A DNA stretch of 64,000 nt, taken from assembly GCA_963816315.1 (NCBI GenBank), contig CAWFJZ010000032.1, positions 46,030 through 110,029 of the forward strand, read 5' to 3'. The translations under genes and the position numbers were made by a program. The DNA is from an uncultured beta proteobacterium (GTDB lineage Bacteria; Pseudomonadota; Gammaproteobacteria; Burkholderiales; Burkholderiaceae_C). The notes beneath the pieces were generated by a model. That model saw only the letters and a program-made list of their open reading frames with translations. It made no database searches and was not told where the DNA came from. How positions within the stretch are numbered: position 1 is the first letter of the stretch; every line of letters starts with the position of its first letter. Positions 6,622 through 62,788 of this stretch are shown piece after piece.

Positions 6622-6630
6622 CCATGGTCG

Positions 6631-38630: not shown

Positions 38631-38667
38631 CAACAACGCCCTTAGAGGGGCAGACAAAGGCTACAAG

Positions 38668-41548: not shown

Positions 41549-41641
41549 GGCAAGTTCAGCGAATGCGAGTTGAGAAAGGATAGTTCGCCCATCGGAAGCA
41601 AGGAAACAAGCGCTCCGGGTACGGCCTTCGCGGCCCAATGG

Positions 41642-41683: not shown

Positions 41684-42109
41684 TTACACGCAGGACTTGG
41701 GAAGGAACTTCGCAAGCATGTCGGAGCTGCAGGTCCAGACGACCGAGCCGCCGCTCAACGACGGGGTCATGCGCACGAGACAACCGTTAACCAGCGTGCT
41801 TGCAACACCGCACATCGTCGAAGTCAGGACGCCGCCCGTGCTGTTGGTGGGCAGGCCGGAGTATTTGCCGTTAGCCACCAGCGACACCCCGGCGGTGACA
41901 CCTGTGCAGCTACCAGAATCGGTACAAGCAGCGACGATTTCCCCACGCTGGCCGTCGATCAGCGCAAACGCCTCCGACACCTGCGAGCGAGCGATGTAGT
42001 CCTGGTAAGCCGGCAGCGCGATGGCAGCCAGGATGCCGATGATCGCAACAACGATCATCAATTCGATCAGCGTGAAGCCCTTTTGTAGGCCTTTGGAAAT
42101 TCGGTTCAT
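41684..42109 (-). CDS. pilA: type IVa major pilin (copy 1)
   Basis: Class III leader and prepilin cleavage site ([38 protein letters not shown]), C-terminal disulfide loop (C...C). AAGGAG RBS 8 nt upstream. Confidence 0.9.
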
Positions 42110-42302: not shown

Positions 42303-42728
42303 TTACACGCAGGACTTGGGGAGGAACTTCGCAAGCATGTCGGAGCTGCAGGTCCAGACGACCGAGCCGCCGCTCAACGACGGGGTCATGCGCACGAGAC
42401 AACCGTTAACCAGCGTGCTTGCAACACCGCACATCGTCGAAGTCAGGACGCCGCCCGTGCTGTTGGTGGGCAGGCCGGAGTATTTGCCGTTAGCCACCAG
42501 CGACACCCCGGCGGTCACACCTGTGCAGCTACCAGCATCGGTACAACCCTCGACGATCAACCCGCGCTGCCCGTCGATCAGCGCGAACGCCTCCGACACC
42601 TGCGAGCGAGCGATGTAGTCCTGGTAAGCCGGCAGCGCGATGGCAGCCAGGATGCCGATGATCGCAACAACGATCATCAATTCGATCAGCGTGAAGCCTT
42701 TTTGCAGGCCTTTGGAAATTCTGTTCAT
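42303..42728 (-). CDS. pilA: type IVa major pilin (copy 2)
   Basis: 141 aa, identical to copy 1 except for four residues in GQRG[E/L]IV[AA/EG]CTD[S/A]GSC. Confidence 0.9.
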
Positions 42729-42772: not shown

Positions 42773-42788
42773 TGCGAACGCCGTGCCA
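42773..42788 (-). promoter_or_regulatory. sigma54-type -24/-12 promoter for pilin copy 2
   Basis: Minus strand TGGCACggcgtTCGCA, in the same position relative to the ATG as in copy 1. Confidence 0.5.
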
Positions 42789-43034
42789 AGTGATTTGCCT
42801 CGAAAACCTGGGGCTTTTGTCACTTTCGCTGACGCGAATCGTCACACGTCGAGCTCCATCCGCGGGCCCCGGCGCTGCTTGACGTTGACCGATGCGACCA
42901 TTTTCGGCCCGCGGGTCAGGCGCCGCGCTTGGGCTGCGCGAATCTTCTGCCAAGGCCAAGGCCGCTACCATCCTAGGGTGTGCAACGGGTGTGCCAACGT
43001 CGCGTGCACCCGAAGAAGCGCAAGGAGATAGCCG

Positions 43035-43331
43035 ATGTTGTTCAGCTGGTTCGACGCCGCCGCCGCCAAGGAGTTTGGCACCGACCTCGCCCGTTTCTAT
43101 GTCGAGAGAGTTCCCGCCGATTCGGGCGTGAACGAAAAGAAGTTCGCCGCGAAGAACAAGGAGGTGATCGACAAGATGGCACTGCGGGTGGCGCAATTCA
43201 AAGAAGCGAACACACTGAACACCTACAAGAAGGCACAGCTTGGCAACGCCTTCAAGTGGGCCTTGCGCGATGCCGGCTACGACACGGCCTACATCGATCG
43301 CCTGACGAGTTGGCTCGTCACGCGACTCTAG
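43035..43331 (+). CDS. small hypothetical protein (98 aa), first gene upstream of the GT41 array
   Basis: The composition is unlike GC-shadow ORFs (K/F/Y/N-rich: MLFSWFDAAAAKEFGTDLARFYVERVP...NKEVIDKMALRVAQFKEANTLNTYKKAQLGNAFKWALRDAGYD). It ends 25 nt before paralogue A. Confidence 0.5.
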   Translation: MLFSWFDAAAAKEFGTDLARFYVERVPADSGVNEKKFAAKNKEVIDKMALRVAQFKEANTLNTYKKAQLGNAFKWALRDAGYDTAYIDRLTSWLVTRL

Positions 43332-43356: not shown

Positions 43357-45717
43357 ATGCTGTCCTGGCTCCGTCGAAACAAGCCCGCGCCCAAACCTCC
43401 GGCCCAAGCGAATCCATCGCCGAAGCCGCTCGTCTCGTCATCGTCCAGCGGCACTGAAAGCGAGGCGCTCAGAAAGAGCGGCAACGCGCTGCTGAACCGG
43501 GGCCAAGTCGAGCAGGCCATGCGCGCATACCGCCAAGCCATCGAACTCGACCCCAGCAATCAAGGCGCCTGGGTCAACCTCGGCTTCTTGCTCAATGGTC
43601 GCCGTGAGTTTGACGAAGCCAAGGCCGTTCTCCATCGGGCCGTCGAACTCGATCCGAACAGCGACGACGCGCTGTACTTGCTGGGCACCGCCGAGCTGGC
43701 GCTCGACGATGAGGTTGCTGCGATGTCCAATTTCAGTCGCGCGCTTGCAGTCCGGCCCGACTTAGAACCCTGCCGCCGCGACCTGTGCCTGATCCACCTG
43801 CGCCGCGGTGACCAAGAGGCCGCGCGTCAGGAGGCCGCGCTGGGCATTGCCGCCGACCCGCAGGCCGCCGAGTTGCACGCGATGGTGGGCAACCTTCACC
43901 GTCAAGCCGGCGAGTTGGGGCAGGCTGTCGCCAGTTTCAGGACGGCACTCGCGCTGCTGCCGAATGCAGCACACGTTCAAGCCAGTCTGGGGGAGGCGCT
44001 GCAGGAGCAAGGCAACCTGCCCGAAGCCTTGGCCTGTTACCAGCGCGCCCTGCAGCTCGAGCCGAAGATGCTGGAAGCGCTTCTGAACATGGGCTTGGTG
44101 CGCTATTGCCAAGGTGACCTGACGGCGGCTGTGGGGATCTTTCGAGAGGCGCTGGCGATTGCACCCGACCACATCGAAGTCCTCAGCAACCTCGGCGCGG
44201 CACTGACTGGTTTGCATCGTCTGCCCGAGGCCTGCGAGGTGTTGAACAAGGTGCTTCGCTTAGCCCCGGGCCATGTGGGATCGCATATCAACCTCGGTAT
44301 CGCGCTGTGGGAGCAATCCGATCTCGATGCAGCGCAGGCGAGCTACCGTCGTGCGCTAGCGCTCAGCCCGGATCATGCCGCGGCACATGGCAACCTCGGG
44401 GCCGTCTTGCAAGAGCTTGGCGAACACGACGCGGCTATCGCAAGCTACTGCAGCGCGCTGTCGATCGAGCCGGACTTTGCGGCCGCGCAGAGCAACCTGC
44501 TTTTCACGCTGAACTATCACCCCGACAAGAGCGCAGAGGAAATCTTTGCGGCCTACCGCGAGCACGACGAGCGGGTGGGGGTGCCGCTGCGCAGCACCTG
44601 GCGCGAGCATGGCAACTCGCGCGATGCGACCCGGCGCCTGAAGGTGGGCTATGTCTCGCCGGACTTTCGCAGGCACGCAGTGCGCCATTTCCTGGAGCCG
44701 CTGCTGGCCCACCACGACAAGCGACAGGTCGAGGTATTCGCCTATGCAGAGCTGTCTGTGGAAGACGACATGACAGCACGCTACCGCGGCTTTGCTGACC
44801 ACTGGGTGCCCACGGTCGGCCTGACCGACGAGACCCTGGCCGAACGCATCCGCGCCGACGGTATCGACATCCTGGTCGATCTGGCGGGGCACATGGCGAA
44901 GAACCGGCTCGGAGCCTTCGCGCGCAAGCCTGCGCCGGTGTCGATATCCTGGATGGGGTTCGGCTATACGACGGGGCTGAGCGCCATCGACTACTTCCTG
45001 ACTGATGGCGCCTGCGCTCCCGAAGGCTGCGAGGACTTGTTTGCCGAGCAGCCCTGGCGGCTGGCAACGCCGGGCTATGCCTTTCGTCCGGCCGAAGGCA
45101 TGGGTCATGTCAGCAGCTTGCCCGCGCAAGACCGAGGCTTCGTCACCTTTGGCACGTTGACGCGCTCGGTGCGCATCAATCACCGCTCGATCCGGGTGTG
45201 GTCGCAAATACTGCATCGTGTGCCAGGGGCGCGACTGGTGGTGGACAGCAGCAACTACCAGGACGAGGGCATGCGCAACGCGCTGCTGGACAAGTTCTCG
45301 GCTCACGGCATCGGGCCTGAGCGGCTGGAGCTTGGTTTTCACTCGCCGCCGTGGGATGTGCTGCGCGGCATGGACATTGGCCTCGACTGCTTTCCGCACA
45401 ACTCGGGAACTACCTTGTTCGAGAGCCTGTACATGGGCGTGCCCTTCATCACCCTGGCCGGGCGGCCCAGCGTAGGCCGCCTGGGCAGCGCGATCCTAGA
45501 GGGCGTGGGCCACCCGGAGTGGATCGCGCGCAGCGAGGACGAGTACATCGACATCGTGGTTGCCCTGGCTAGCGATCTGCCGAAGCTGGCCACGTTGCGC
45601 GCGGGCTTGCGGTCGCAGATGCAGGCCAGCGCGGTGATGGACGAGCCCGGCTTTGCGCGCAAGCTGGAGGCGGCTTACCGCGAGATGTTCTCGCGCTGGG
45701 CCGCGGGCCCGGCCTGA
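43357..45717 (+). CDS. TPR + GT41 (OGT/SPINDLY-like) glycosyltransferase, paralogue A (786 aa)
   Basis: About 400 aa of TPRs, then the GT41-like domain from NLLFTLNYHPDKSA (VGYVSPDFRRHAVRHFLEP, FPHNSGTTLFESLYMGVPFITLAG, EDEYIDIVVALASDLPKL). Its N-terminus (MLSWLRRNKPAPKPP) is unique within the array. Confidence 0.85.
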   Translation: MLSWLRRNKPAPKPPAQANPSPKPLVSSSSSGTESEALRKSGNALLNRGQVEQAMRAYRQAIELDPSNQGAWVNLGFLLNGRREFDEAKAVLHRAVELDPNSDDALYLLGTAELALDDEVAAMSNFSRALAVRPDLEPCRRDLCLIHLRRGDQEAARQEAALGIAADPQAAELHAMVGNLHRQAGELGQAVASFRTALALLPNAAHVQASLGEALQEQGNLPEALACYQRALQLEPKMLEALLNMGLVRYCQGDLTAAVGIFREALAIAPDHIEVLSNLGAALTGLHRLPEACEVLNKVLRLAPGHVGSHINLGIALWEQSDLDAAQASYRRALALSPDHAAAHGNLGAVLQELGEHDAAIASYCSALSIEPDFAAAQSNLLFTLNYHPDKSAEEIFAAYREHDERVGVPLRSTWREHGNSRDATRRLKVGYVSPDFRRHAVRHFLEPLLAHHDKRQVEVFAYAELSVEDDMTARYRGFADHWVPTVGLTDETLAERIRADGIDILVDLAGHMAKNRLGAFARKPAPVSISWMGFGYTTGLSAIDYFLTDGACAPEGCEDLFAEQPWRLATPGYAFRPAEGMGHVSSLPAQDRGFVTFGTLTRSVRINHRSIRVWSQILHRVPGARLVVDSSNYQDEGMRNALLDKFSAHGIGPERLELGFHSPPWDVLRGMDIGLDCFPHNSGTTLFESLYMGVPFITLAGRPSVGRLGSAILEGVGHPEWIARSEDEYIDIVVALASDLPKLATLRAGLRSQMQASAVMDEPGFARKLEAAYREMFSRWAAGPA

Positions 45718-45733
45718 GTTCAGGCTAGCAGAC

Positions 45734-48322
45734 ATGTTCGCTTCATTGAAGAAGAAACTGTTCGGCGGCGCGGCGAAGAGCCAGCCGGACATGTCGGCGC
45801 GCGTTGCCGCCGCACCGCCAACAGAAGCCGAGACCGGCGCCTCGGCGTTCAAGCAGCGCGGCAATGCACTGCGCGAACAGGGCCATCTACAGGAGGCCGT
45901 GCAATGCTATCGCCAAGCTCTGGCAGCAGCGCCCAACGATGTCGGCGCGCTGGTCAATCTGGGCTTTGTGCTCAGCGAGCTCGGGCAGCACGTGGAGGCT
46001 CGCCCTCATCTCGAGAAGGCAATCGGACTCGACCCGAAGCAGGACGATGCCTTGTACATACTAGGCACCATCGAACGCGCCACAGGCAGCGCGCACAAGG
46101 CGATCGAGCGCTTTCGCTCGACACTGGCCCTGCGACCCGATTTCTCGATCTGCCGGCTCGATCTGTGCCGCTTGCTGTTCGAACACGGGTTCTTGCAAGA
46201 GGCCAGGCAAGCCGTCACCGCCGGCATCGCCATCGAACCCGACTCGGCCGACCTGCATTGCTACCTAGGCAATCTGCATCACGAAGCGCGTGAGCTGGAC
46301 AAAGCTGTCGCGTGCTTCCAGACGGCATTGGCACTTCAGCCGAACTACGCACCCGCGTATCAAGGCTTGGCCATGGCGCATTCAAATCTCGGGACGGCCC
46401 TTCAAGCTCAGGGGAAGTTCGACGCTGCCGCAGCGGCTTACCTTCGCGCGTTGGAACTGAGGCCCGATCACGCGCAGGCGCACTGCAGTCTGGCCTCAGT
46501 GCTCCACGCGCAAGGGCGGTTGAACGACGCGATCCAGAGCTATAAGACCGCGCTCTCGCTGCAGCCGGATCTCACCGAAGCTCATGCAGACTTGGGAACC
46601 GTTTTTCACGACAAGGGCGACCTGCCTGCCGCGGTCGAGAGCTATCGAGCTGCGCTCGCGATCGAGCCGGGTTTTGCGCAAGGTCATATCAATCTTGCGT
46701 TGGTGCTGCAGGCCCAGGGCAAGTTCGATGAAGCCGTCAGGAGTTATGAGACGGCGGTTGCGCTCATGCCGGCCAATCCTGAAGCCCACTGCGGCTTGGG
46801 AACTGCATTGCAGGATCAGGGAAAGCAAGCCGCCGCGATAGCCAGCTATCGCATCGCGATTTCCCTGAATCCTGAATACGCTGACGCACACAGCAACCTC
46901 GGGACTCTTCTTCAGGCTCAAGGAAAGCTCGACGCCTCGCTGACGAGTTATCGCACGGCGCTTTCGTTGAAGCCCGACAGCAGCATGGCGCACGGCAACG
47001 TCGGTTCTGTTCTACAGGAAATGGGCGAGAACGACGCGGCGATCGAAAGCCTGCGACGCGCACTCGCGCTCAATCCGGACTACGCGATTGCTCAGTACAC
47101 CTTGCTTTTCACGCTGAACTATCACCCCGACAAGAGCGCGCAGGAGATCTTCGCGGCTTACCGCGAGCACGACGCGCTGGTGGGGGTGCCGCTGCGCAGC
47201 ACCTGGCGCAAGCATGGCAACTCGCGCGATGCGACGCGGCGGCTGAGGGTGGGTTATGTCTCGCCGGACTTTCGCAAACACGCGGTGCGCCATTTCCTCG
47301 AGCCGCTGCTGGCCCACCACGACAAGCGACAGGTCGAGGTGTTCGCCTATGCAGAGCTGACGGTGGAAGACGACATGACAGCACGCTATCGCGGGCTGGT
47401 CGATCACTGGGTGCGCACCGTCGGCCTGAGCGACGAGGCTCTGGCCGAACGCATCCGCGCCGACGGCATCGACATCCTGGTCGATCTGGCGGGACACACG
47501 GCGAAGAACCGGCTCGGAGCCTTCGCGCGCAAGCCGGCGCCGGTGTCGATGTCGTGGCTGGGATTCGGCTACACGACGGGGCTGAGCGCCATCGACTACT
47601 TTCTGACTGATGGCGCCTGCGCTCCCGAAGGCTGTGAGGACTTGTTTGCAGAGCGACCTTGGCGGCTGTCAACGCCGGGCTATGCCTTTCGTCCGGCCGA
47701 AGGCATGGGCCCCGTCAGCAGCCTGCCCGCGCAAGACCGAGGCTTCGTCACCTTTGGCACGTTGACGCGCTCGGTGCGCATCAACCACCGCTCCATCCGG
47801 GTGTGGTCGCAAATACTGCATCGTGTGCCAGGATCGCGATTGGTGGTGGACAGCGGCAACTACCGGGACGAGGGCATGCGCACCACGCTGCAAGACAAGT
47901 TCTCGGCCCATGGCATCGGCCCCGAGCGGCTCGAGCTCGGGTTTCACACACCGCCGTGGGACGTGCTGCGTGGCATGGACATTGGCCTCGACTGCTTTCC
48001 ACACAACTCGGGGACTACCTTGTTCGAGAGCCTGTACATGGGCGTGCCCTACGTCACCCTCGCCGGGCGGCCGAGCGTGGGCCGCCTGGGCAGCTCGATC
48101 TTGCACGGCGTGGGCCACCCGGAGTGGATCGCGCGCAGCGAGGACGAGTACGCCGACATCGCGGTAGCCCTGGCCAGCGATCTGCCGAAGCTGGCTGCGC
48201 TGCGCGCGGGCTTGCGGGCGCAGATGCAGGCCAGCGCGGTGATGGACGAGCCCGGGTTTGCGCGCAAGGCCGAGGCGGCTTACCGCGAGATGTTCTCGCA
48301 CTGGGCCGCAGGCCCGGCCTGA
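45734..48322 (+). CDS. TPR + GT41 glycosyltransferase, paralogue B (862 aa)
   Basis: Start at the internal ATG 45734 (MFASLKKKLFGG). About 480 aa of TPRs plus the GT41-like domain. The last ~370 codons are identical to paralogue D. Confidence 0.85.
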   Translation: MFASLKKKLFGGAAKSQPDMSARVAAAPPTEAETGASAFKQRGNALREQGHLQEAVQCYRQALAAAPNDVGALVNLGFVLSELGQHVEARPHLEKAIGLDPKQDDALYILGTIERATGSAHKAIERFRSTLALRPDFSICRLDLCRLLFEHGFLQEARQAVTAGIAIEPDSADLHCYLGNLHHEARELDKAVACFQTALALQPNYAPAYQGLAMAHSNLGTALQAQGKFDAAAAAYLRALELRPDHAQAHCSLASVLHAQGRLNDAIQSYKTALSLQPDLTEAHADLGTVFHDKGDLPAAVESYRAALAIEPGFAQGHINLALVLQAQGKFDEAVRSYETAVALMPANPEAHCGLGTALQDQGKQAAAIASYRIAISLNPEYADAHSNLGTLLQAQGKLDASLTSYRTALSLKPDSSMAHGNVGSVLQEMGENDAAIESLRRALALNPDYAIAQYTLLFTLNYHPDKSAQEIFAAYREHDALVGVPLRSTWRKHGNSRDATRRLRVGYVSPDFRKHAVRHFLEPLLAHHDKRQVEVFAYAELTVEDDMTARYRGLVDHWVRTVGLSDEALAERIRADGIDILVDLAGHTAKNRLGAFARKPAPVSMSWLGFGYTTGLSAIDYFLTDGACAPEGCEDLFAERPWRLSTPGYAFRPAEGMGPVSSLPAQDRGFVTFGTLTRSVRINHRSIRVWSQILHRVPGSRLVVDSGNYRDEGMRTTLQDKFSAHGIGPERLELGFHTPPWDVLRGMDIGLDCFPHNSGTTLFESLYMGVPYVTLAGRPSVGRLGSSILHGVGHPEWIARSEDEYADIAVALASDLPKLAALRAGLRAQMQASAVMDEPGFARKAEAAYREMFSHWAAGPA

Positions 48323-48376
48323 GTTCGGGGCTTGCCGGCATGTTCACGTCGTTGAAGAAGAAGCTGTTCGGGAACG
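47218..48376 (+). repeat. identical tract 1, copy a (3' end of B + spacer + first 12 codons of C)
   Basis: Matches 52040-53198 at an offset of 4822 nt. Spot-checked lines are identical, and so are the six-frame ORF translations (47669..48301 = 52491..53123, 47823..48167 = 52645..52989, 48049..48267 = 52871..53089). Confidence 0.85.
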
Positions 48377-50244
48377 GGACCACGCGGCTTCAAACCGCCG
48401 AACTCTTAGAGCAAGGCCAAGCAGCCGAAGCGCGGGGCGAGGTCGATGAAGCAGAGCGGCTTTATCGGCGTGCGGTTGCGGCCGACGATGCGTCAGCAGA
48501 TGCACATATGAATCTGGGTAACGTCTTGAACGCGAAAGGTCATGGGTTGGCCGCGGTTGAGTCGTACGAGCGGGCTATCTCGATCAACGCCAAGCACGCT
48601 TCCGCACACTACAACTTGGGCCTCGCGCTGCTTTACGCGGGCGACAACGCGCGAGTTGTACAACTCTTTCGCACAGCAGTTCGGCTTCGTGAGGCGTTCC
48701 CGCAGGCTTGGGTCGGTTTGGCGCTGGCACTGGAAGCTCAAGGCGATTTCGAAGGGGCCATTGAAAGCTACCGCCAAGCGGTGCGTGTGAAGCCTGACTT
48801 TGTCGAGGCGCACAGAAACCTCGGGTTGATCTGCCTCCAGCGAGGTCAGGTCAAGGCAGCGGACGAGAGCTATCGCAGGGCGCTGCTGGCCAGTCCTGGA
48901 GATGCCGAGTCATACCTCGGCCTCGCTAGCGTCCTGAAGGAACGAGGCGACATCGATGCGGCGATCGAGGCGTGTTGTAAGGCGCTGGATGTTGATCCGA
49001 ACCACATTGCCGGGCGGAGCAACTTGCTGTTTGCTCTCAACTACCACCCCGACAAAAGCGCGGAGGAGATCTTTGCGGCTTATGTCGAATACGACGAGCG
49101 CTTTGGTCTGCCGCAACGCCGTAGCTGGCGCGCTCACGACAACGATCCGAACACGGCTCGGCGATTGAAGGTTGGTTATGTCTCACCAGACTTCAATCAT
49201 CACCCGGTGCGCCACTTTCTCGAGCCTCTGCTCGCGAACCATGACAAGACCGCGGTGGAGATCTACGCATACGCCGAACTGACACAGGAGGACGCCGTCA
49301 CTTCGCGCTACAGGGCCATCGTTGACCATTGGATTCCAAGCAGGGGCTTGACCGACGCTGCGTTGGCCGCGCGCATTCGTGACGACAAGATCGATGTCCT
49401 GGTGGACCTGGCAGGGCACACCATGAACAGTCGTCTCGGTGCGTTTGCGATCAAACCGGCACCGGTATCGATGTCGTGGCTCGGCTACGGCTACACAACA
49501 GGGCTGAGCGCCATCGACTACTTCCTTGCTGACAGCGCAAGTGCACCGCAGGGCGCCGACGGCCTGTTTGCCGAACGCCCCTGGCGCCTTGCAACCCCTG
49601 CCTATGCCTACCGGCCGGCCGACGGGATGGGCCCGGTCGGCACGTTGCCGTCGGCTCGGCGCGGCCATGTCACGTTCGGCACATTGACGCGGGCCGTGCG
49701 AATCAATCATCGATCGATTCGCGTCTGGTCGGAGATACTCAGGCGGGTGAAGGGCGCTCGGTTGGTCGTGAACAGCAGAAGTTACCTGGATGCCGACATG
49801 CGGTCGAGGCTTGCTGAGAGGTTCGCCGAGAACGGCATCGCAGCGGACCGGCTTGAGCTTGGTTTTTCCTCCCCGCCGTGGGACGTGTTGCGCGATATGG
49901 ACATCGGCCTCGACTGCTTTCCGCACAACTCGGGCACGACACTGTTCGAATCGCTGTACATGGGTGTGCCCTACGTCACGTTGGCCGGGCGGCCCAGCGT
50001 GGGCCGCCTGGGCAGCTCGATCTTGCACGGCGTGGGCCACCCGGAGTGGATCGCGCGCAGCGAGGACGAGTACGCCGACATCGCGGTGGCCCTGGCCAGC
50101 GATCTGCCGAAGCTGGCCGCGCTGCGCGCGGGCTTGCGGGCGCAGATGCAGGCCAGCGCGGTGATGGACGAGCCCGCTTTCGCACGCAAGCTGGAGGCGG
50201 CTTACCGCGAGATGTTCTCCCGCTGGGCCGCGGGCCCGGCCTGA
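48340..50244 (+). CDS. TPR + GT41 glycosyltransferase, paralogue C (634 aa)
   Basis: Start ATG 48340 (MFTSLKKKLFGN). Short, divergent TPR region (about 250 aa) plus a GT41-like domain (NLLFALNYHPDKSA...). Confidence 0.85.
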   Translation: MFTSLKKKLFGNGTTRLQTAELLEQGQAAEARGEVDEAERLYRRAVAADDASADAHMNLGNVLNAKGHGLAAVESYERAISINAKHASAHYNLGLALLYAGDNARVVQLFRTAVRLREAFPQAWVGLALALEAQGDFEGAIESYRQAVRVKPDFVEAHRNLGLICLQRGQVKAADESYRRALLASPGDAESYLGLASVLKERGDIDAAIEACCKALDVDPNHIAGRSNLLFALNYHPDKSAEEIFAAYVEYDERFGLPQRRSWRAHDNDPNTARRLKVGYVSPDFNHHPVRHFLEPLLANHDKTAVEIYAYAELTQEDAVTSRYRAIVDHWIPSRGLTDAALAARIRDDKIDVLVDLAGHTMNSRLGAFAIKPAPVSMSWLGYGYTTGLSAIDYFLADSASAPQGADGLFAERPWRLATPAYAYRPADGMGPVGTLPSARRGHVTFGTLTRAVRINHRSIRVWSEILRRVKGARLVVNSRSYLDADMRSRLAERFAENGIAADRLELGFSSPPWDVLRDMDIGLDCFPHNSGTTLFESLYMGVPYVTLAGRPSVGRLGSSILHGVGHPEWIARSEDEYADIAVALASDLPKLAALRAGLRAQMQASAVMDEPAFARKLEAAYREMFSRWAAGPA

Positions 50245-50261
50245 GTTCGGGGCTTGCAGGC

Positions 50262-53144: not shown

Positions 53145-53198
53145 GTTCGGGGCTTGCCGGCATGTTCACGTCGTTGAAGAAGAAGCTGTTCGGGAACG
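52040..53198 (+). repeat. identical tract 1, copy b (3' end of D + spacer + first 12 codons of E)
   Basis: See copy a. Mismatches bound the tract at 47217/52039 (g/c) and 48377/53199 (g/c). Confidence 0.85.
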
Positions 53199-55744
53199 CG
53201 GCGAGCAAGCAAGGGGAGTCGGCGCGCGGTGCCGCCGTATCGAGCGAAGCCGAGGCCAACGCCTCGGAATTCACGCAGCGCGGCAACGCGCTCCGCGAAC
53301 AGGGCCGCCTACAGGAAGCTGCACAGTGCTATCGGCAGGCCCTGGCAGCATCGCCCTACGACATCGGCGCGCTGGTCAACCTGGGCTTTGTGCTGAGCGA
53401 GCTCGAACAATACGTGGAGGCTCGCTCGCCTCTCCAGAAGGCAGCGTTGCTCGACCCGAAGCAAGACGATGCCCTGTACATCCTGGGCACCATCGAGCGC
53501 GCTACCGGCAACCAGGACAAGGCAATCGAGCACTTTGGCGCGACGCTGGCCCTGCGACCCGACTTCTCGCTCTGCCGGCTCGATCTGTGCCGTCTGCTGT
53601 TTGAGCGCGGGTTCGTGCAAGAGGCCAGAGAAGTCGTCAACACCGGCATAGCCATCGACCCCAACTCGGCCGACCTGCACTACTACCTAGGCAATCTACA
53701 TAACGAAGCGCGCGAGCTGGATGAGGCCGTCGCGTGCTTCCAGAAGGCGTTGGCACTTCAGCCGAACTACGCGCCCGCGTATCAAGGCTTGGCCATGGCG
53801 CATTCGAATCTCGGAACAGCCCTTCAAGCTCAGGGGAAGTTCGATGCCGCCGCGGCGGCCTACCGCCGTGCGTTGGAACTGAGGCCCGATCATGCGCAGG
53901 CGCATTGCGGTCTGGCCTCCGTGTCTCACTCGCAAGGGCGTTTGAACGACGCTATACAGAGCTACAAAACCGCGCTTTCGTTGCAGCCGGATTTCACCGT
54001 GGCCTGGGTCAACCTGGGAAATGTCTTTCAAGATCTGGGCGCCCTGCCGAACGCTATCGACAGCTATCAGGCTGCAATTGCGCTGGAGCCAACGATTGCC
54101 GAAGCGCATAACAACCTGGCCACCGCGCTACAAGCACAAGGCAAGCTCAGCGATGCGGTCACGAGCTACGAAACGGCGATCGAACTCAAACCGAACTACG
54201 CCGAGGCTCACTGCAATTTGGGGACGGTGTTGGCCGCGCTGGGCGATAACCCTGCAGCCATCACGAGGTATCGACTGGCGATATCCATGGCCCCCGACTA
54301 TGCCGATGCTCATAGCAATCTTGGCAATCTTCTTCAAAGCTGTGGTCAGCTAGGCGCTGCACACGAGAGTTACACCAAAGCTCTTTCGTTGACGCCTGAC
54401 AGCGCCACTGCGCACCGCAACCTGGGAGGCGTATTTCAGGAAATGGGCGAGCACGACGCGGCGATCGAAAGCTTGCAACATGCACTCACGCTCAAACCGG
54501 ACTGCGCCATCGCGCAGTTCATGTTGCTCTTCACGCTGAACTATCACCCCGACAAGAGCGCGCAAGAGATCTTTGCGGCCTATCGCGACTACGACCAGCG
54601 GGTGGGCCTGCCGCTGCGCAGCAGCTGGCGCGAGCATGGCAACTCGCGCGACTCATCCAAGCGCCTGAAGGTGGGCTATGTCTCGCCCGATTTTCGCCAG
54701 CACGCGGTGCGCCACTTCCTCGAGCCGCTGCTGGCCCACCACGACAAGCGACAGGTCGAGGTGTTCGCCTATGCAGAGCTGTCGATGGAAGACGCCATGA
54801 CGGCCCGCTACCGCGGCTTCGCCGACCACTGGGTGCCCACCGTCGGCCTGACCGACGAGATGCTGGCCGAACGCATCCGCGCCGACGAGATCGACATCCT
54901 TATTGATCTGGCGGGGCAGACGGCGAAGAACCGGCTGGGGGTCTTTGCGCGCAAGCCTGCGCCGGTGTCGATGTCGTGGCTGGGCTTTGGCTACACAACG
55001 GGGCTGAGCGCCATCGACTACATGCTCACCGACAGCGCAAGCACCCCCGAAGGCAGCGAAGACTTGTTTGCCGAGCAACCTTGGCGGCTAACGACGCCAG
55101 GCTATGCCTATCGTCCGGCCAATGGCATGGGCCATGTCAGCAGCTTGCCGGCGCAAGACCGGGGCTTCATCACCTTCGGCACGTTGACGCGCTCGGTGCG
55201 CATCAACCACCGCTCTATCCGAGTGTGGTCGCAAATACTGCATCGCTTGCCAGGGGCGCGACTGGTGGTGGACAGCAGCAACTACCGGGACGAAAGCATG
55301 CGCAACGCGCTGCTGGACAAGTTCTCGGCCCATGGCATCGGTCCCGAGCGGCTGGAGCTTGGTTTTCATTCACCGCCGTGGGATGTGCTGCGCGGCATGG
55401 ACATCGGGCTGGACTGCTTTCCGCACAACTCGGGCACGACGCTGTTCGAGTCGCTCTACATGGGTGTGCCCTACGTCACCCTCGCCGGGCGGCCGAGCGT
55501 GGGCCGCCTGGGCAGCTCGATCCTGCAGGGCGTGGGCCACCCCGAGTGGATCGCCGACAGCGAGGACGAGTACGTTGAGTTGGCCGTAGCGCTGGCCAGC
55601 GATCTGCCCAAGCTGGCTGCGCTGCGCGCGGGCTTGCGCGCGCAGATGCAGGCCAGCGCGGTGATGGACGAGCCCGCCTTCGCACGCAAGCTGGAGACGG
55701 CTTATCGCGAGATGTTCTCGCGCTGGGCCGAAGGCTCGGCCTGA
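53162..55744 (+). CDS. TPR + GT41 glycosyltransferase, paralogue E (860 aa)
   Basis: Start ATG 53162 (MFTSLKKKLFGN). About 480 aa of TPRs plus the GT41-like domain. Confidence 0.85.
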   Translation: MFTSLKKKLFGNAASKQGESARGAAVSSEAEANASEFTQRGNALREQGRLQEAAQCYRQALAASPYDIGALVNLGFVLSELEQYVEARSPLQKAALLDPKQDDALYILGTIERATGNQDKAIEHFGATLALRPDFSLCRLDLCRLLFERGFVQEAREVVNTGIAIDPNSADLHYYLGNLHNEARELDEAVACFQKALALQPNYAPAYQGLAMAHSNLGTALQAQGKFDAAAAAYRRALELRPDHAQAHCGLASVSHSQGRLNDAIQSYKTALSLQPDFTVAWVNLGNVFQDLGALPNAIDSYQAAIALEPTIAEAHNNLATALQAQGKLSDAVTSYETAIELKPNYAEAHCNLGTVLAALGDNPAAITRYRLAISMAPDYADAHSNLGNLLQSCGQLGAAHESYTKALSLTPDSATAHRNLGGVFQEMGEHDAAIESLQHALTLKPDCAIAQFMLLFTLNYHPDKSAQEIFAAYRDYDQRVGLPLRSSWREHGNSRDSSKRLKVGYVSPDFRQHAVRHFLEPLLAHHDKRQVEVFAYAELSMEDAMTARYRGFADHWVPTVGLTDEMLAERIRADEIDILIDLAGQTAKNRLGVFARKPAPVSMSWLGFGYTTGLSAIDYMLTDSASTPEGSEDLFAEQPWRLTTPGYAYRPANGMGHVSSLPAQDRGFITFGTLTRSVRINHRSIRVWSQILHRLPGARLVVDSSNYRDESMRNALLDKFSAHGIGPERLELGFHSPPWDVLRGMDIGLDCFPHNSGTTLFESLYMGVPYVTLAGRPSVGRLGSSILQGVGHPEWIADSEDEYVELAVALASDLPKLAALRAGLRAQMQASAVMDEPAFARKLETAYREMFSRWAEGSA

Positions 55745-56317
55745 GTTTCGGGGCTCACAGGCATGTTCACGTCGTTGAAGAACAAGCTGTTCGGCAGCAC
55801 AGCAAAGCAGCCGCAACCGCCCGAACCCCAGGCCGACGCCGCGGCGGTCAAGAAACGCGGCAACGCACTGCGCGAACAAGGCCATCTACAGGAGGCCGTG
55901 CAGTGCTATCGCCGGGCCCTGGCAGCAGCGCCCAACGATGTCGGCGCGCTGGTTAACTTGGGATTTGTGCTGAGCGAGCTCAAGCAGCATGCGGAGGCTC
56001 GCTCGCATCTCGAAAAGGCCATTCAGCTCGACCCGAAACAGGACGATGCCTTGTACATCCTTGGCACCATCGAGCGCGCCACCGGCAATCCGGACCAGGC
56101 GATCGAGCGCTTTGGCGCAACGCTGGATCTCAAGCCCGACTTCTCGATGTGCCGGCTCGAGCTGTGCCGCCTGCTGTTCGAGCGCGGTCGTGCTGACGAA
56201 GCCAAGCAGGTCGTCCAAGCCGGTATCGCCATCGACCCCGCCTCGGCCGATCTGCACTACTACCTGGGCAATCTGCATCACGAAGCTCGTGAGCTGGATG
56301 CGGCCATCTCGTGCTTC
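55334..56317 (+). repeat. identical tract 2, copy a (3' end of E + spacer + first 185 codons of F)
   Basis: Matches 57278-58261 at an offset of 1944 nt. ORF translations are identical (55370..55885 = 57314..57829, 55471..55689 = 57415..57633), and F and G proteins are identical through ...AISCF. Confidence 0.85.
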
Positions 56318-57688
56318 GAGCGGGCGTTGTCCATCAGTCCGGACTACGCCGAGGTGTATGGCAACCTGGCCAATTCGTTGCAAGAGCGGGGCAACTTGGA
56401 CCGTGCAGTCGATTGCGCGCGAAGGGCGCTGCAGCTGCAGCCGGGACTCGATGCAGCTCAGAACAACCTTCTGTTCGCGTTGAACTACCACCCCGACAAG
56501 AGCGCGCAGGAGATTTTTGCGGCCTACCGCGAGTACGACGAGCGCGTGGGGCTGCCACTGCGCAACACTTGGCGCGAGCATGCCAACTCACGCGACGCGT
56601 CCAAACGCCTGAAGGTGGGCTATGTCTCGCCGGACTTTCGCCAGCACCCGGTTCGTCATTTTTTGGAGCCACTGCTGGCCCACCACGACAAGCGTTTGGT
56701 CGAAGTGTTCGCCTACGCAGAACTGTTGCTGGAAGACGCAACAACATTGCGTTATCGCACCTACGTGGATCACTGGATCGCCACTGCCGGCCTAAGCGAC
56801 GATGCGCTTGCCGACCGGGTTCGCTCTGACGGCATCGACATCCTGCTCGACCTGGCCGGACACACTGGCAAGAATCGATTGGGCGTCTTCGCGCGCAAGC
56901 CTGCACCGGTGTCGATGTCGTGGTTGGGCTTCGGATACACGACGGGCCTGACTGCCATCGACTACATGCTCACCGATGGCGCGAGTGCTCCCGAAGGTAG
57001 CGAAGATTTGTTTGCCGAGCAGCCCTGGCGGCTGGCAACGCCGGGCTATGCCTATCGTCAGGCCGAAGGCATGGGCGCAGTGAGTGCTCTGCCGGCGCAA
57101 GACAGAGGCTTCGTCACCTTCGGCACCTTGACGCGCTCGGTGCGCATCAACCACCGCACCGTGCGGGTGTGGTCGCAAGTACTGCATCGAGTGCCAAGGG
57201 CGCGACTGGTGGTGGACAGCATGAACTATCGAAACCCATCGGTGCGAGACGAGCTGACCCGGAAGTTCGCCGAGAACGGCATCGGTCCCGAGCGGCTGGA
57301 GCTTGGTTTTCATTCACCGCCGTGGGATGTGCTGCGCGGCATGGACATCGGGCTGGACTGCTTTCCGCACAACTCGGGCACGACGCTGTTCGAGTCGCTC
57401 TACATGGGTGTGCCCTACGTCACCCTCGCCGGGCGGCCGAGCGTGGGCCGCCTGGGCAGCTCGATCCTGCAGGGCGTGGGCCACCCCGAGTGGATCGCCG
57501 ACAGCGAGGACGAGTACGTTGAGTTGGCCGTAGCGCTGGCCAGCGATCTGCCCAAGCTGGCTGCGCTGCGCGCGGGCTTGCGCGCGCAGATGCAGGCCAG
57601 CGCGGTGATGGACGAGCCCGCCTTCGCACGCAAGCTGGAGACGGCTTATCGCGAGATGTTCTCGCGCTGGGCCGAAGGCTCGGCCTGA
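55763..57688 (+). CDS. TPR + GT41 glycosyltransferase, paralogue F (641 aa)
   Basis: MFTSLKNKLFGS. About 260 aa of TPRs plus the GT41-like domain. The 5' 555 nt are identical to G and the 3' 411 nt are identical to E. Confidence 0.85.
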   Translation: MFTSLKNKLFGSTAKQPQPPEPQADAAAVKKRGNALREQGHLQEAVQCYRRALAAAPNDVGALVNLGFVLSELKQHAEARSHLEKAIQLDPKQDDALYILGTIERATGNPDQAIERFGATLDLKPDFSMCRLELCRLLFERGRADEAKQVVQAGIAIDPASADLHYYLGNLHHEARELDAAISCFERALSISPDYAEVYGNLANSLQERGNLDRAVDCARRALQLQPGLDAAQNNLLFALNYHPDKSAQEIFAAYREYDERVGLPLRNTWREHANSRDASKRLKVGYVSPDFRQHPVRHFLEPLLAHHDKRLVEVFAYAELLLEDATTLRYRTYVDHWIATAGLSDDALADRVRSDGIDILLDLAGHTGKNRLGVFARKPAPVSMSWLGFGYTTGLTAIDYMLTDGASAPEGSEDLFAEQPWRLATPGYAYRQAEGMGAVSALPAQDRGFVTFGTLTRSVRINHRTVRVWSQVLHRVPRARLVVDSMNYRNPSVRDELTRKFAENGIGPERLELGFHSPPWDVLRGMDIGLDCFPHNSGTTLFESLYMGVPYVTLAGRPSVGRLGSSILQGVGHPEWIADSEDEYVELAVALASDLPKLAALRAGLRAQMQASAVMDEPAFARKLETAYREMFSRWAEGSA

Positions 57689-58261
57689 GTTTCGGGGCTC
57701 ACAGGCATGTTCACGTCGTTGAAGAACAAGCTGTTCGGCAGCACAGCAAAGCAGCCGCAACCGCCCGAACCCCAGGCCGACGCCGCGGCGGTCAAGAAAC
57801 GCGGCAACGCACTGCGCGAACAAGGCCATCTACAGGAGGCCGTGCAGTGCTATCGCCGGGCCCTGGCAGCAGCGCCCAACGATGTCGGCGCGCTGGTTAA
57901 CTTGGGATTTGTGCTGAGCGAGCTCAAGCAGCATGCGGAGGCTCGCTCGCATCTCGAAAAGGCCATTCAGCTCGACCCGAAACAGGACGATGCCTTGTAC
58001 ATCCTTGGCACCATCGAGCGCGCCACCGGCAATCCGGACCAGGCGATCGAGCGCTTTGGCGCAACGCTGGATCTCAAGCCCGACTTCTCGATGTGCCGGC
58101 TCGAGCTGTGCCGCCTGCTGTTCGAGCGCGGTCGTGCTGACGAAGCCAAGCAGGTCGTCCAAGCCGGTATCGCCATCGACCCCGCCTCGGCCGATCTGCA
58201 CTACTACCTGGGCAATCTGCATCACGAAGCTCGTGAGCTGGATGCGGCCATCTCGTGCTTC
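57278..58261 (+). repeat. identical tract 2, copy b (3' end of F + spacer + first 185 codons of G)
   Basis: See copy a. The tract is bounded by t/c at 55333/57277 and g/c at 56318/58262. Confidence 0.85.
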
Positions 58262-59653
58262 CAGAAAGCGTTGGCTCTTCGGCCGGACTATCTGGAGGTG
58301 CACAACAATCTTGGCAACAGCTATCTCGCACAAGGCGAACTCGAAGCTTCGCTCGAGTCTTATCAGAAGGTGATTTTGCTCGACCCGCGCTTCCCGAATG
58401 CCTACGGCACGATGCTGTTCCCGCTGAACTACCACCCAGATCTCGGCGCGGACGAAATATTCGCGGCATATCGGGCCTACGACGCCCATGTCGGGCTACC
58501 GCTGCGCTCTGCTTGGCGGGCGCACGACAACGATCGCAGCATCACGCGGCGTCTCCGGGTGGGCTATGTCTCGGCCGACTTCTATGAGCACGCGGTGCGG
58601 TTTTTCCTGGAACCCTTGCTGGCAAACCACGACAAAGCCACCGTTGAAATATTTGCCTATGCCGAGCTGGACAAAGAAGACTCGACGACGGCAATTTACA
58701 GACGATACGTGGACCACTGGACGCCGACCATGGACCTATCGGATGACGCGCTCGCTGAGCGCATTCGGTTCGACAGGATCGACATCCTCGTCGACCTCGC
58801 GGGGCACACGGCGAAGAACCGGCTGGGTGTGTTTGCACGAAAGCCAGCTCCGGTTTCACTCTCATGGCTCGGCTACGGATATACAACCGGACTCGGTGCC
58901 ATTGACTACTTTTTGACTGACAGCATCAGCGCACCACCAGGCAGCGAGAGCTTGTTCGCTGAAAAGCCTTGGTGCCTGTCAACTCCCGCATGCTCCTACC
59001 GACCGGCGGTGCAAATGGGCAATGTCAGCAGTTTGCCGGCACAGAGCAACGGTGTGGTCACCTTCGGCACGCTGACGCGCGCAATACGGATCAATCACCG
59101 CTCCATTCGTGTTTGGGCCGAGATTCTGAAGCGAGTACGCGGTTCCCGACTGGTGGTGAACAGCACCAGCTTTCGCGAGCCGGCGATGCGTACCAGTCTG
59201 GCCGAGAAGTTTGCGGTAAACGGAATCGAAAGGGAGCGTCTGCAGATCGGCTATGACACCCCGCCGTGGGATGTGCTGCGCGCTATGGACATCGGGCTCG
59301 ATTGCTTTCCGCACAACTCGGGGACCACGCTGTTCGAAAGCTTGTACATGGGCGTGCCCTTCGTCACTCTGGCCGGCCGACCCAGCGTGGGCCGACTGGG
59401 AAGTTCGGTTTTGCACGGCGCTGGGCACCCGGAGTGGATTGCCCACAGCGAGGACGAGTACATCGACAAGGCGGTCGCACTGGCCAGCGACCTGCCAAAG
59501 CTGGCCGCGTTGCGCGCGGGGCTGCGTGCGCAGGTCGAGGCCAGCCCGATCAGGGACGAGGCCGGGTTCGCCCGCAAGGTGGAATTGGCCTACCGCGAGA
59601 TGTTCGCAATCTGGGCAAATGGAGCAAGCGACGCTCCGGCGGCCAGAACTTGA
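57707..59653 (+). CDS. TPR + GT41 glycosyltransferase, paralogue G (648 aa)
   Basis: MFTSLKNKLFGS. About 265 aa of TPRs plus the most divergent GT41-like domain in the array (MLFPLNYHPDLGA...FPHNSGTTLFESLYMGVPFVTLAG). Confidence 0.85.
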   Translation: MFTSLKNKLFGSTAKQPQPPEPQADAAAVKKRGNALREQGHLQEAVQCYRRALAAAPNDVGALVNLGFVLSELKQHAEARSHLEKAIQLDPKQDDALYILGTIERATGNPDQAIERFGATLDLKPDFSMCRLELCRLLFERGRADEAKQVVQAGIAIDPASADLHYYLGNLHHEARELDAAISCFQKALALRPDYLEVHNNLGNSYLAQGELEASLESYQKVILLDPRFPNAYGTMLFPLNYHPDLGADEIFAAYRAYDAHVGLPLRSAWRAHDNDRSITRRLRVGYVSADFYEHAVRFFLEPLLANHDKATVEIFAYAELDKEDSTTAIYRRYVDHWTPTMDLSDDALAERIRFDRIDILVDLAGHTAKNRLGVFARKPAPVSLSWLGYGYTTGLGAIDYFLTDSISAPPGSESLFAEKPWCLSTPACSYRPAVQMGNVSSLPAQSNGVVTFGTLTRAIRINHRSIRVWAEILKRVRGSRLVVNSTSFREPAMRTSLAEKFAVNGIERERLQIGYDTPPWDVLRAMDIGLDCFPHNSGTTLFESLYMGVPFVTLAGRPSVGRLGSSVLHGAGHPEWIAHSEDEYIDKAVALASDLPKLAALRAGLRAQVEASPIRDEAGFARKVELAYREMFAIWANGASDAPAART

Positions 59654-59656: not shown

Positions 59657-60385
59657 TCAGTTCACGCGCCTGAGGTACCCGCCCGGCGCAACGGTAATCA
59701 AAAGCTTGCTCTCGATATCGACGTTGATCTCGAAATCACGCGACTCGCGCAGAAACTGCTGCACGGCCGTTTTCGGGTTGTTGCCCGGGCCCCATGCACG
59801 GTCGCCGACCAGCCTCGCCGGCATGTCTTCGATCAGCGTGTCCATCACGACGCAGTAACCGCCCTGGCACACCAGCGGGGCATAGGCTCGCAGCTCGGCC
59901 AGCACGTGATCGTGGGTGTGGTTGGAGTCGAGCACCACAACTGCACGCTTGCCATTCGCCAAAGCGCGCACCTGATCAATTGTTGCCGCGTCGATGGACG
60001 AACCCTGCAGCAAGCGCACGCGGCGGCTCATCGGATGCGCCTCGATGGCTTCGCGGTTGTGCGGGCGGATGTCGATATCGACGCCGAGCACCTCGCCATG
60101 ACCGATCAGTTCCAGCAGTGACGCGTAGTAGAGGATCGACCCACCGTGGGCGACGCCGGCTTCGATCACCAGATCGGGCTTCACCGACCACAAGATCTCC
60201 TGCATGGCCATCATGTCCTGCGGGAACTGGATGATGGGTCGCCCCATCCAGCTGAAGTTGTACGCGTACTTGTGCGGCGACACTTCACGCACCCAGACGC
60301 GCGACAGGGCTTGCAGATCACGGTCTTGCTTCAAGCCCTCGGTGTTGCGCCGAACTTCATCTCGGAATTCTTCATGCGGGTTCAT
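59657..60385 (-). CDS. CmcI / cephalosporin-hydroxylase-family SAM-dependent (sugar O-)methyltransferase
   Basis: YAYNFSWMGRPIIQFPQDMMAMQEILWSVKPDLVIEAGVAHGGS...VVLDSNHTHDHVL is typical of the CmcI/rhamnosyl O-methyltransferase family. Start at the internal ATG 60385. Confidence 0.8.
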   Translation of the reverse strand: MNPHEEFRDEVRRNTEGLKQDRDLQALSRVWVREVSPHKYAYNFSWMGRPIIQFPQDMMAMQEILWSVKPDLVIEAGVAHGGSILYYASLLELIGHGEVLGVDIDIRPHNREAIEAHPMSRRVRLLQGSSIDAATIDQVRALANGKRAVVVLDSNHTHDHVLAELRAYAPLVCQGGYCVVMDTLIEDMPARLVGDRAWGPGNNPKTAVQQFLRESRDFEINVDIESKLLITVAPGGYLRRVN

Positions 60386-62768: not shown

Positions 62769-62788
62769 TTGAATGTCTCGCTCAGAGG

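Follow-up and report, generated by a model that had tools for sequence, protein, structure and literature searches.

A head-to-tail array of seven glycosyltransferase genes, here called G1 to G7 in their order, is found at positions 43357-59653 of a 64-kb stretch of DNA from an uncultured betaproteobacterium (GenBank assembly GCA_963816315.1, contig CAWFJZ010000032.1, positions 46,030 to 110,029 of the forward strand); this whole stretch is referred to as the window. A preliminary description had proposed that the array belongs to a dedicated protein-glycosylation island, and the locus indeed looks like one. It is a GT41 protein-glycosylation island, i.e., the pilin-linked, seven-cistron form of a modular SPINDLY-like subfamily that is probably dedicated to filament subunits and that carries an Arg in place of the essential GT41 Lys. 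With a probability of about 0.5, we infer that the array enzymes O-glycosylate the neighboring pilins in the cytoplasm and at multiple sites. A pilin rich in Ser and Thr and a locus signature typical for pilins, consisting of a tfpZ-like gene, two pilA copies, and a small gene designated orf98, count toward a pilin as the acceptor.

The array genes and their products

The seven open reading frames (ORFs) are located on the + strand, start with ATG, end with a single terminal stop codon and are 16-18 nt apart; the coordinates, strand and spacing reported in the preliminary description were all reproduced. G1 (43357-45717) encodes a protein of 786 amino acids (aa) with ~10 tetratricopeptide repeats (TPRs). 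It is the anchor copy, with an N terminus of its own (MLSWLRRNK), and its orthologue is the first module (4874-7235) of the closest relative among the surveyed loci, L012, with 80-89% aa identity. The products of G2 (45734-48322; 862 aa) and G5 (53162-55744; 860 aa) contain ~12 TPRs each, G5 having GQT for the GHT motif, and that of G4 (50262-53144; 960 aa) contains ~15. Six TPRs are present in the products of G3 (48340-50244; 634 aa), G6 (55763-57688; 641 aa), and G7 (57707-59653; 648 aa). In all cases, the TPRs are combined with a GT41 domain. The motifs listed earlier for this C-terminal domain are present and mostly invariant in a seven-way alignment, but its length, previously given as about 370 aa, is ~396 aa per protein.

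Pfam searches identified Glyco_transf_41 (PF13844) and TPR families in all seven proteins. The PF13844 matches (E 1e-40 to 1e-46; 137-157 bits vs. a cutoff of 25) come as two stretches per protein, corresponding to the N- and C-lobes. None of the seven contains a segment resembling a transmembrane (TM) helix or signal peptide, the maximal hydropathy over 19 aa being 1.51 vs. 2.94 in a pilin control. This agrees with the earlier statement that such segments are absent, and all seven proteins are predicted to be soluble.

The array genes share a spacer consensus, TGAGTT(T)CGGGGCT..C.GGCATG. In-frame read-through between modules was considered and ruled out: the spacers of 16-18 nt shift successive genes to different frames. 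Scans for promoter and terminator consensus sequences inside the array gave matches at or below chance. Judged by spacing alone, orf98 and G1 to G7 probably form a single transcription unit.

Fold, active site, and subfamily

The HMM search and structure prediction recommended in the preliminary description, the latter performed for G6, both yielded a GT41 match, and together with sequence comparison they identify the proteins as OGT/SPINDLY-type enzymes with TPRs and a GT41 domain. Among solved structures, SPINDLY of Arabidopsis (SPY; 7y4i) matches best, with an E value of 2e-119 over the full length and of 4e-75 for the catalytic domain alone, which aligned end to end. Next come the OGTs of T. 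terrenum (TtOGT; 2e-72), human (hOGT; ~1e-34) and Xanthomonas (XcOGT; ~1e-26). An AlphaFold (AF2) model of G6 (pLDDT 89.4, pTM 0.83) matched SPY in Foldseek with an E value of 1e-47, a TM score of 0.88-0.89 and 33% identity; the corresponding TM scores were 0.73/0.90 for TtOGT and ~0.7/0.8 for XcOGT.

The donor-contact residues described for SPY (PMC9715652) were mapped onto alignments of the seven copies. The Asp-x3-His pair in SPDFxxH (D491/H495 in SPY, D554/H558 in hOGT) and the diphosphate-binding Thr in FPHNSGTT (T748 in SPY) are invariant. In contrast, the essential phosphate-binding Lys (K665 in SPY, K842 in hOGT, K445 in SeOgt of Synechococcus elongatus, K341 in TtOGT) is replaced by Arg in all seven, in the context FGTLTR-S/A-V/I-R-INHR. 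Other pocket positions of SPY have changed as well: N661 to Thr, N662 to Arg, the guanine-stacking H728 to Pro, Y744 to His, and S496 to Ala or Pro. The residue proposed to determine the size of the sugar pocket (Y744 in SPY, C917 in hOGT) is thus His, and the hOGT pocket residues Q839, K842, C917, and H920 read Arg, Arg, His, and Gly when aligned to 6IBO/3PE3. The hOGT numbering in this pocket comparison is partly that of PMC9715652 and partly what we take it to be.

The same variant is found throughout the relatives. Arg occupies the catalytic-Lys column in 136 of 136 related catalytic domains from 74 loci, and the same holds for 113 of the 114 metagenome homologues that were matched; among the best 120 database homologues, 113 have the Arg and 115 the His, the remainder being mostly truncated. 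The OGT of T. terrenum has a Met here in the structure 5DJS; a natural loss of the Lys was considered and ruled out, since the Foldseek description shows an engineered K341M substitution. The replacement of Lys by Arg is conservative and looks like a family variant rather than a loss of function, and, as judged by these residues, the Arg/His enzymes form a distinct GT41 subfamily. Because Arg replaces the Lys and His occupies the sugar-gating position, UDP-GlcNAc and GDP-fucose are both unlikely donors. Naming the enzymes by activity, as OGT or SPINDLY, is unsafe, as both substitutions are present in every member. The pocket of a SPINDLY-type protein O-fucosyltransferase (POFUT; N661, K665, H728, Y744) is not kept in the seven copies, only T748 being retained, and because the pocket reads Thr, Arg, Pro, and His, they cannot be classified as POFUTs. 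Neither do they have the UDP-GlcNAc pocket of the hOGT type. The NCBIfam model for NGT gave a marginal match (22.7 bits vs. a cutoff of 1000). An Asn-Leu-Gly "asparagine ladder" is present in just 2-7 TPRs per protein; OGT-like peptide binding in the lumen of the TPR superhelix appears plausible.

Pilin genes, orf98, and tailoring operon

Both flanks named in the preliminary description, i.e., a duplicated pilin locus and a sugar-tailoring cluster, were confirmed with Pfam. On the left side, two copies of pilA, each encoding a type IVa major pilin of 141 aa, are located on the - strand (copy 1, 41684-42109; copy 2, 42303-42728), and the pair ends 628 nt upstream of G1. The products match the Pfam families Pilin and N_methyl (E 1e-15 and 4e-10, respectively, for copy 1) and differ only in the alpha-beta loop; the genes share exact DNA repeats of 194 and 113 bp. 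Such a tandem pair could be a sign of pilin variation or gene conversion. The fraction of Ser plus Thr in the C-terminal domain of the window pilin is 0.28, and it ranges from 0.24 to 0.31 in pilins encoded beside GT41 genes; for comparison, it is 0.16 in what we take to be the sequence of the PAK pilin. The pilA genes are accompanied by a tfpZ-like pilin accessory gene (40763-41551, - strand), whose product, 262 aa from the chosen Met, contains one TM-like segment and matches NCBIfam NF041437 (TfpX/TfpZ) with 206 bits vs. a cutoff of 200. Upstream of pilA copy 2, two sigma-54-type -24/-12 elements are present on the - strand, a perfect one (TGGCAC-N5-TTGCA; 42981-42996) and one with a single mismatch (42773-42788). 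The 64-kb window contains no other match; the number is not above chance, but the position of the two is appropriate. The distal, perfect element lies directly before the start of the divergent orf98.

The first gene of the + strand unit is orf98 (43035-43331), which has a strong coding bias (GC3 0.82) and encodes a soluble protein of 98 aa with four predicted helices (AF2 model, pLDDT 84). Its 216 database homologues are nearly all 97-99 aa long and share the conserved core LNTYKKAQLGNAFKWALKDAGY; a conserved Ser/Thr cluster is absent from them. No match was found in Pfam and NCBIfam, and a fold search of the model against the PDB yielded nothing significant (best E 0.33, TM ≤ 0.42).

On the right side, a gene for a protein resembling CmcI and rhamnosyl-O-methyltransferases (59657-60514, - strand; PF04989, E 1e-90) is convergent with G7, with 3 nt between the stop codons. 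It is followed on the same strand by Pfam-identified genes for a WbqC-like protein (60372-61094), a GNAT protein (61099-61671), an S-adenosylmethionine-dependent methyltransferase (61614-62801), and a PhyH-type dioxygenase (62789-63634). The last gene, for a DegT/DnrJ-type sugar aminotransferase (63631-64000, - strand), has its stop codon overlapping the PhyH start and is cut by the end of the window, which includes only the C-terminal 122 codons; we take it to be a DegT gene from its translation, recognized by eye and not by HMM. The equivalent cluster in the surveyed locus L022 carries a Pfam-confirmed DegT gene.

Genomic context of related genes

In a survey in which one genome per species was scanned, 254 relatives were found, and 74 loci were retrieved in windows of ~21 kb. 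Most are from Betaproteobacteria (Burkholderiales, Nitrosomonadales, Sulfuricellaceae, Gallionella), and some from Desulfobulbales and Chromatiales. A survey of copy number and neighbors had been recommended in the preliminary description; multi-module arrays and fusions, as well as neighbors linked to pili or flagella, were found. Type IV pilin genes are present in ~10 of the 74 GTDB loci, usually together with tfpZ and always on the orf98 side, and the layout of the window, i.e., tfpZ-pilA-pilA, orf98-GT41(n), CmcI, recurs in other genomes. The convergent junction between GT41 and CmcI genes is also found in the pilin-type loci L003, L012, and L026, and CmcI is the commonest companion of the subfamily in pilin-type and flagellar-type loci alike. 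Flagellin or other flagellar genes are found beside GT41 genes in 25 of the 74 loci. In the Pfam-verified L037, flhA-flhB-cheZ-cheY-motB-motA, GT41, a C-methyltransferase gene, CmcI, and a flagellin gene follow each other; L022, verified likewise, contains flhC, GT41, genes for a dehydratase and a C-methyltransferase, DegT, the series CmcI-WbqC-GNAT-methyltransferase-PhyH, and a flagellin gene. As we estimate that, given a handful of such genes per genome, adjacency to pilin or flagellin genes would occur by chance in ~1% of random 20-kb windows, both associations are strong. No locus among the 74 has both contexts, and orf98 or pilin genes combined with flagellar genes were found in none of 74 + 80 surveyed loci. 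In the survey, orf98 homologues were confined to non-flagellar loci.

An independent test consisted of a metagenome scan seeded with the orf98 alignment, which gave 20 loci flanked by 4 kb or more on either side. Within 8 kb of orf98, GT41 genes were found in 16 of these loci, type IV pilin genes in 15, both in 15, and flagellar genes in none. Two layouts recur: orf98 followed by GT41, as in the window, or orf98 followed by pilA with divergent GT41 genes. According to the Pfam annotation of the neighbors, L076 (6935-14977) contains FimB, further on PglL, orf98-TPR/GT41, and PglL-pilin-pilB. The two genes of PglL type, which encode O-oligosaccharyltransferases, thus enclose the orf98-GT41 pair, and a periplasmic and a putative cytoplasmic route for pilin glycosylation may coexist in this single locus; L077 contains orf98-pilin and, further on, a TPR protein. 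The preliminary description had reasoned that a cytoplasmic location of the enzymes argues against a pilin as the acceptor. That argument does not hold up against the recurrence of the window layout elsewhere and the joint presence of orf98, pilin, and GT41 genes in three quarters of the metagenome loci.

Modularity of the subfamily

The presence of several adjacent copies is no peculiarity of the window: the subfamily is typically multi-modular, with 2-5 modules encoded either by tandem genes or by one giant ORF. Single ORFs with five GT41 domains are present in L034 (2624-14029) and L063 (3,802-3,820 aa), and ORFs with four in L040 and L045 (~2,800 aa) and in L051 and L054 (~2,550-2,690 aa). 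Three-domain ORFs of ~2,000-2,100 aa occur in L006, L032, L037 (8828-15070), L048, and L074, and a two-domain ORF of 1,442 aa in the pilin-type locus L026 (8846-13171). Pfam recognized nine GT41 stretches in L034, six in L037, and four in L026. Most of the giant fused ORFs are located in flagellar loci of Desulfobulbaceae, Rhodoferax, and Pseudorhodoferax. Because the fusion junctions coincide exactly with the gene boundaries in the window, the window array apparently represents a common multi-module design in split form. With seven modules, it has the highest count among the surveyed loci within their windows of ~21 kb.

The window array consists of a single subtype throughout its seven modules. 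Other arrays (L002, L020, L027-L029, L040, L042, L044, L047) mix at least four GT41 active-site subtypes, with the signatures TRxVRINH/FPHNSG, FNNLxK/FPYxGG (SPY-like), SGRxERLNH (x = S/T)/FPHSGG, and FNNFNK/DPVNVNGG, which suggests that such mixed arrays use several donors. In literature searches of incomplete coverage, we found no multi-module GT41 enzymes, Arg variant, orf98, or proteobacterial pilin-linked GT41.

Evolution of the array

The catalytic domains of G1 to G7 are 70-99% identical, those of G2 and G4 being 99% identical and that of G7 being the most divergent (70-75%). Pairwise dN/dS for these domains is 0.14-0.23, with dS up to ~1.5 for G3 and G7; G3 is an old paralogue with a dS of ~0.9-1.5 to the others. 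Because of these low ratios, all seven genes, old and young paralogues together, are under purifying selection, and a loss of catalytic residues in most copies, raised earlier as a point against the assignment, was not seen.

Catalytic domains and TPRs have not always followed the same course. G2 and G4 combine near-identical catalytic domains with different numbers of TPRs, and the TPR regions of G6 and G7 start identically and are joined to catalytic domains that are only 71% identical. Two exact direct repeats on the + strand cross gene junctions. One of 1159 bp (47218-48376 and 52040-53198) extends from the 3' end of G2/G4 across the spacer into the initial 37 nt of G3/G5, and one of 984 bp (55334-56317 and 57278-58261) extends from the 3' end of G5/G6 across the spacer into the initial 555 nt of G6/G7. 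Thus, G6 shares its first 555 nt with G7 and its last 411 nt with G5. The N-terminal sequence of G2 to G7, MF(T/A)S(L/F)K(K/N)KLFG, is lineage-specific and was found only in the window, L012, and L001. In L012, the left flank is 91-96% identical to that of the window at the aa level, and the G1 orthologue is followed by two modules, three in total. As L012 has three modules and the window seven, the copy number has changed recently, and the array has grown through recent duplication and gene conversion. Among close relatives, such a rapid change in number (three vs. seven) suggests that surface glycans are under diversifying pressure.

Proposed function and its alternatives

We propose that each enzyme would bind an extended Ser/Thr-rich stretch of the prepilin (PilA1 or PilA2) in its TPR superhelix, in the cytoplasm, before or during insertion of the prepilin into the membrane, and would transfer one sugar from a nucleotide sugar; OGT and SPY likewise hold their substrate as an extended chain in the TPR lumen. 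The sugar is probably a 6-deoxy or amino-deoxy hexose, and the convergent operon would make or tailor the donor by amination, N-acylation, and methylation. A modified amino- or 6-deoxy-hexose is suggested because the operon encodes an aminotransferase, an N-acyltransferase, methyltransferases, and a dioxygenase. As all seven catalytic domains carry one signature, the enzymes probably share the same donor. As a conjecture, their TPR lengths (6, 6, 6, ~10, ~12, ~12, ~15) might then act as rulers or selectors that steer this shared chemistry to different sites or pilin variants. The orf98 product may act as an accessory or adaptor protein. A more far-reaching version of this proposal, to be regarded as tentative, is that the locus represents a class of modular, assembly-line glycosyltransferases, in which the TPR rulers of successive modules place sugars at defined Ser/Thr sites and the orf98 product delivers the prepilin before its insertion. 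It would constitute a third route for pilin glycosylation besides PglL/TfpO and TfpW, with the Arg/His variant marking a new GT41 donor class that uses an NDP-linked amino-deoxy or methylated 6-deoxy hexose.

Several observations weigh against pilin glycosylation. The main difficulty is one of topology: the insertion of type IV prepilins into the membrane is generally co-translational, via the SRP/Sec pathway, so that a cytoplasmic enzyme would have little time to act. The objection is softened by HMW1, which is glycosylated in the cytoplasm by the GT41 enzyme HMW1C before its export via Sec. The evidence for the action of Ogt on PilA in cyanobacteria is genetic, without in vitro transfer (PMC9306852). 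Furthermore, flagellar genes are the commonest context of the subfamily. L022, L035, and L038 share the order CmcI-WbqC-GNAT-methyltransferase-PhyH with the window, and in these loci the series is terminated by a flagellin gene; the tailoring cluster of the window is most similar (42-65% aa identity) to those of L022 and L038; its CmcI is 59-60% identical to that of flagellar loci of Curvibacter and Hylemonella vs. 50% to that of L012. In addition, no pilin gene is found near orf98 in L078, where orf98 and a TPR protein gene are part of a polysaccharide cluster, or in L039, where orf98 and a single GT41 gene are flanked by four chemoreceptor (MCP) genes and ffh. A tree of the catalytic domains was dropped as a guide to the acceptor, because it does not cleanly part pilin-type from flagellar-type enzymes: the context changes repeatedly along it, and paralogues of the same genome group with each other; it tracks taxonomy and concerted evolution, not context.

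Flagellin had been named among the possible acceptors, and given its prominence among the relatives, this was apt. The array and the tailoring operon would then form a flagellin island abutting a pilin locus, and flagellin would receive its sugars while still in the cytoplasm, ahead of export through the flagellar type III system. This poses no topological difficulty, as cytoplasmic flagellin glycosylation elsewhere illustrates (PMC7591256). The Pfam-verified loci L037 and L022, the gene order and CmcI identities given above, and the presence of GT41/SPINDLY-type genes in flagellin glycosylation islands of enterobacteria (PMC4875605) all fit this idea. Yet, there is no flagellar gene in the 64-kb window, nor within 10 kb downstream in L012; the window carries the full pilin-type signature of tfpZ, pilA, and orf98, which in the surveyed loci never occurs in combination with flagellar genes; and Rhodoferax ferrireducens BE313 holds both a flagellar three-module fused GT41 gene (L037) and a separate orf98-GT41 locus (L039), which argues for different jobs. 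We consider flagellin rather unlikely as the acceptor, but it is the main and a serious rival of the pilins. It is improbable that the enzymes are OGT/SPINDLY-like regulators with a broad range of cytoplasmic targets, or with targets among the cytoplasmic parts of the pilus or chemotaxis machinery, instead of a filament subunit; the different TPRs would then select the sets of targets. SPY and OGT do modify many nucleocytoplasmic proteins (PMC9715652), O-GlcNAcylation of multiple proteins has been reported for HmwC of Yersinia (PMC11329713), and some orf98-GT41 pairs lie among chemoreceptor genes without a pilin gene (L039). However, genes for exported filament subunits and sugar-tailoring operons are recurrent neighbors of the subfamily, a strong linkage that is typical of decoration with surface glycans and not of signaling, and no hydrolase that could reverse the modification is encoded at the locus.

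Two further explanations concern the array itself, whatever its acceptor. Repeats may have caused an assembly that inflated or rearranged a smaller array: the exact repeats of 1159 and 984 bp cross gene junctions and exceed the length of short reads and typical inserts, and the closest relative, L012, has three modules only. We consider such an artefact quite improbable, since every module has unique sequence, with different TPR numbers and with G3 and G7 at a dS of 0.9-1.5, all reading frames are intact, the spacers are regular, and arrays or fusions of 4-5 modules are present in many independent assemblies; misassembly could affect at most one or two near-identical segments (G2/G4, G5-G6/G6-G7). 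Finally, most copies could be pseudo-enzymes, i.e., catalytically dead TPR scaffolds, as all seven have Arg at the position of the essential Lys, and substitutions of this Lys abolish activity in SPY (K665A and the natural spy-19 allele, K665M; PMC9715652) and in the Ogt of S. elongatus (K445A; PMC9306852). This is very improbable. The exchange for Arg is conservative and leaves phosphate binding possible, the Arg is invariant among the 136 related domains along with the rest of the pocket, and the dN/dS values over the catalytic domains point to selection on fold and pocket.

Comparison with known systems

SPY of Arabidopsis (PDB 7Y4I, 8DTF-8DTI), a nucleocytoplasmic protein O-fucosyltransferase of family GT41, is the best match in both sequence and structure. 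Like the window enzymes, it consists of a TPR superhelix and a two-lobed GT-B domain without the metazoan intervening domain, and equivalents of its D491/H495 and T748 are kept. However, the window enzymes differ in donor-contact residues, so GDP-fucose is unsupported as donor. They are also bacterial, occur in multiple copies, and are linked to genes for pilins or flagellins.

A parallel may be drawn with cyanobacteria. The Ogt of S. elongatus (Synpcc7942_0051) is soluble, needed for the glycosylation of PilA, and syntenic with pilA; ogt is located beside pilin genes in 38% of 201 cyanobacterial genomes, and OgtA of Nostoc punctiforme behaves similarly (PMC9306852). Thus, as in the window, a soluble TPR + GT41 protein is encoded beside pilA. 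Unlike the window enzymes, cyanobacterial Ogt is encoded by a single gene, keeps the Lys (K445), and uses UDP-GlcNAc, whereas the betaproteobacterial locus has seven paralogues with the Arg and His residues, orf98 as a partner, and an operon with methyltransferase and aminotransferase genes.

The flagellar-type relatives resemble the flagellin islands of enterobacteria, where GT41 genes (COG3914) are found beside flagellin and sugar-modification genes, with methyltransferases being common (De Maayer & Cowan 2016, PMC4875605). These islands are bioinformatic predictions with 1-3 glycosyltransferases each, which are often fused to a methyltransferase, and multi-module fusions, arrays, the Arg variant, and pilin linkage are absent from that description. 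In Caulobacter FlmG, the TPR domain binds the flagellin substrate, and sugar transfer, which takes place in the cytoplasm, is the task of the linked C-terminal GT-B domain; a single FlmG serves several flagellin paralogues (PMC7591256). The principle of a soluble enzyme with an N-terminal TPR domain that binds a filament subunit is the same, but the likeness is architectural only: FlmG is described as the founding member of its own glycosyltransferase class, has a single module, uses pseudaminic acid, and is not called a GT41 enzyme in that paper. HMW1C/NGT and HmwC of Yersinia, also GT41 enzymes, offer a precedent for a surface-exposed acceptor, as the HMW1 adhesin is glycosylated in the cytoplasm before export (PMC3012730). 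In contrast to the window enzymes, they have an all-alpha domain instead of TPRs, mediate N-linked hexosylation, and keep the catalytic Lys.

Implications

Site selection by O-glycosyltransferases, which takes place without a sequon, has yet to be explained, and the locus offers a natural experiment in this respect, combining near-identical catalytic domains with 6 to ~15 TPRs beside the likely substrate. A subfamily with Arg for Lys and a His gate would extend the chemistry of GT41 beyond GlcNAc, fucose, and glucose. If the pilins are the acceptors, cytoplasmic pilin glycosylation would be shown outside the cyanobacteria, with a bearing on pilus assembly, evasion of phages and predators, and the surface properties of environmental Betaproteobacteria. 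The fused enzymes with 2-5 modules are unusual multi-catalytic glycosyltransferases with possible use in glyco-engineering.

Other features of the window

The first 40 kb of the window contain chromosomal housekeeping genes, including gatAB, mreBCD-PBP2-rodA, a two-component system, recA, sucCD, and a kinase/PP2C/FHA trio. From ~40 kb on, the G+C content falls from 0.66-0.72 to 0.61-0.65 across the pilin/GT41/sugar region (about 40000-64000), which is compatible with an island that is variable or was exchanged horizontally. The trio (36768-39366, + strand) consists of genes for a Ser/Thr-kinase-like protein, a PP2C phosphatase, and an FHA-domain protein in a row. Between it and the island, bordering the latter, genes for a metallo-beta-lactamase (MBL)-fold or class-II phosphodiesterase-like protein and for a DUF2919 protein are located. 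Further upstream, on the - strand (10750-16197), a gene for a protein of 1179 aa, whose sole Pfam match is a weak one to the C-terminal domain of Dyp-type peroxidases, is followed by a gene for a patatin-like phospholipase of 625 aa, an unusual pair.

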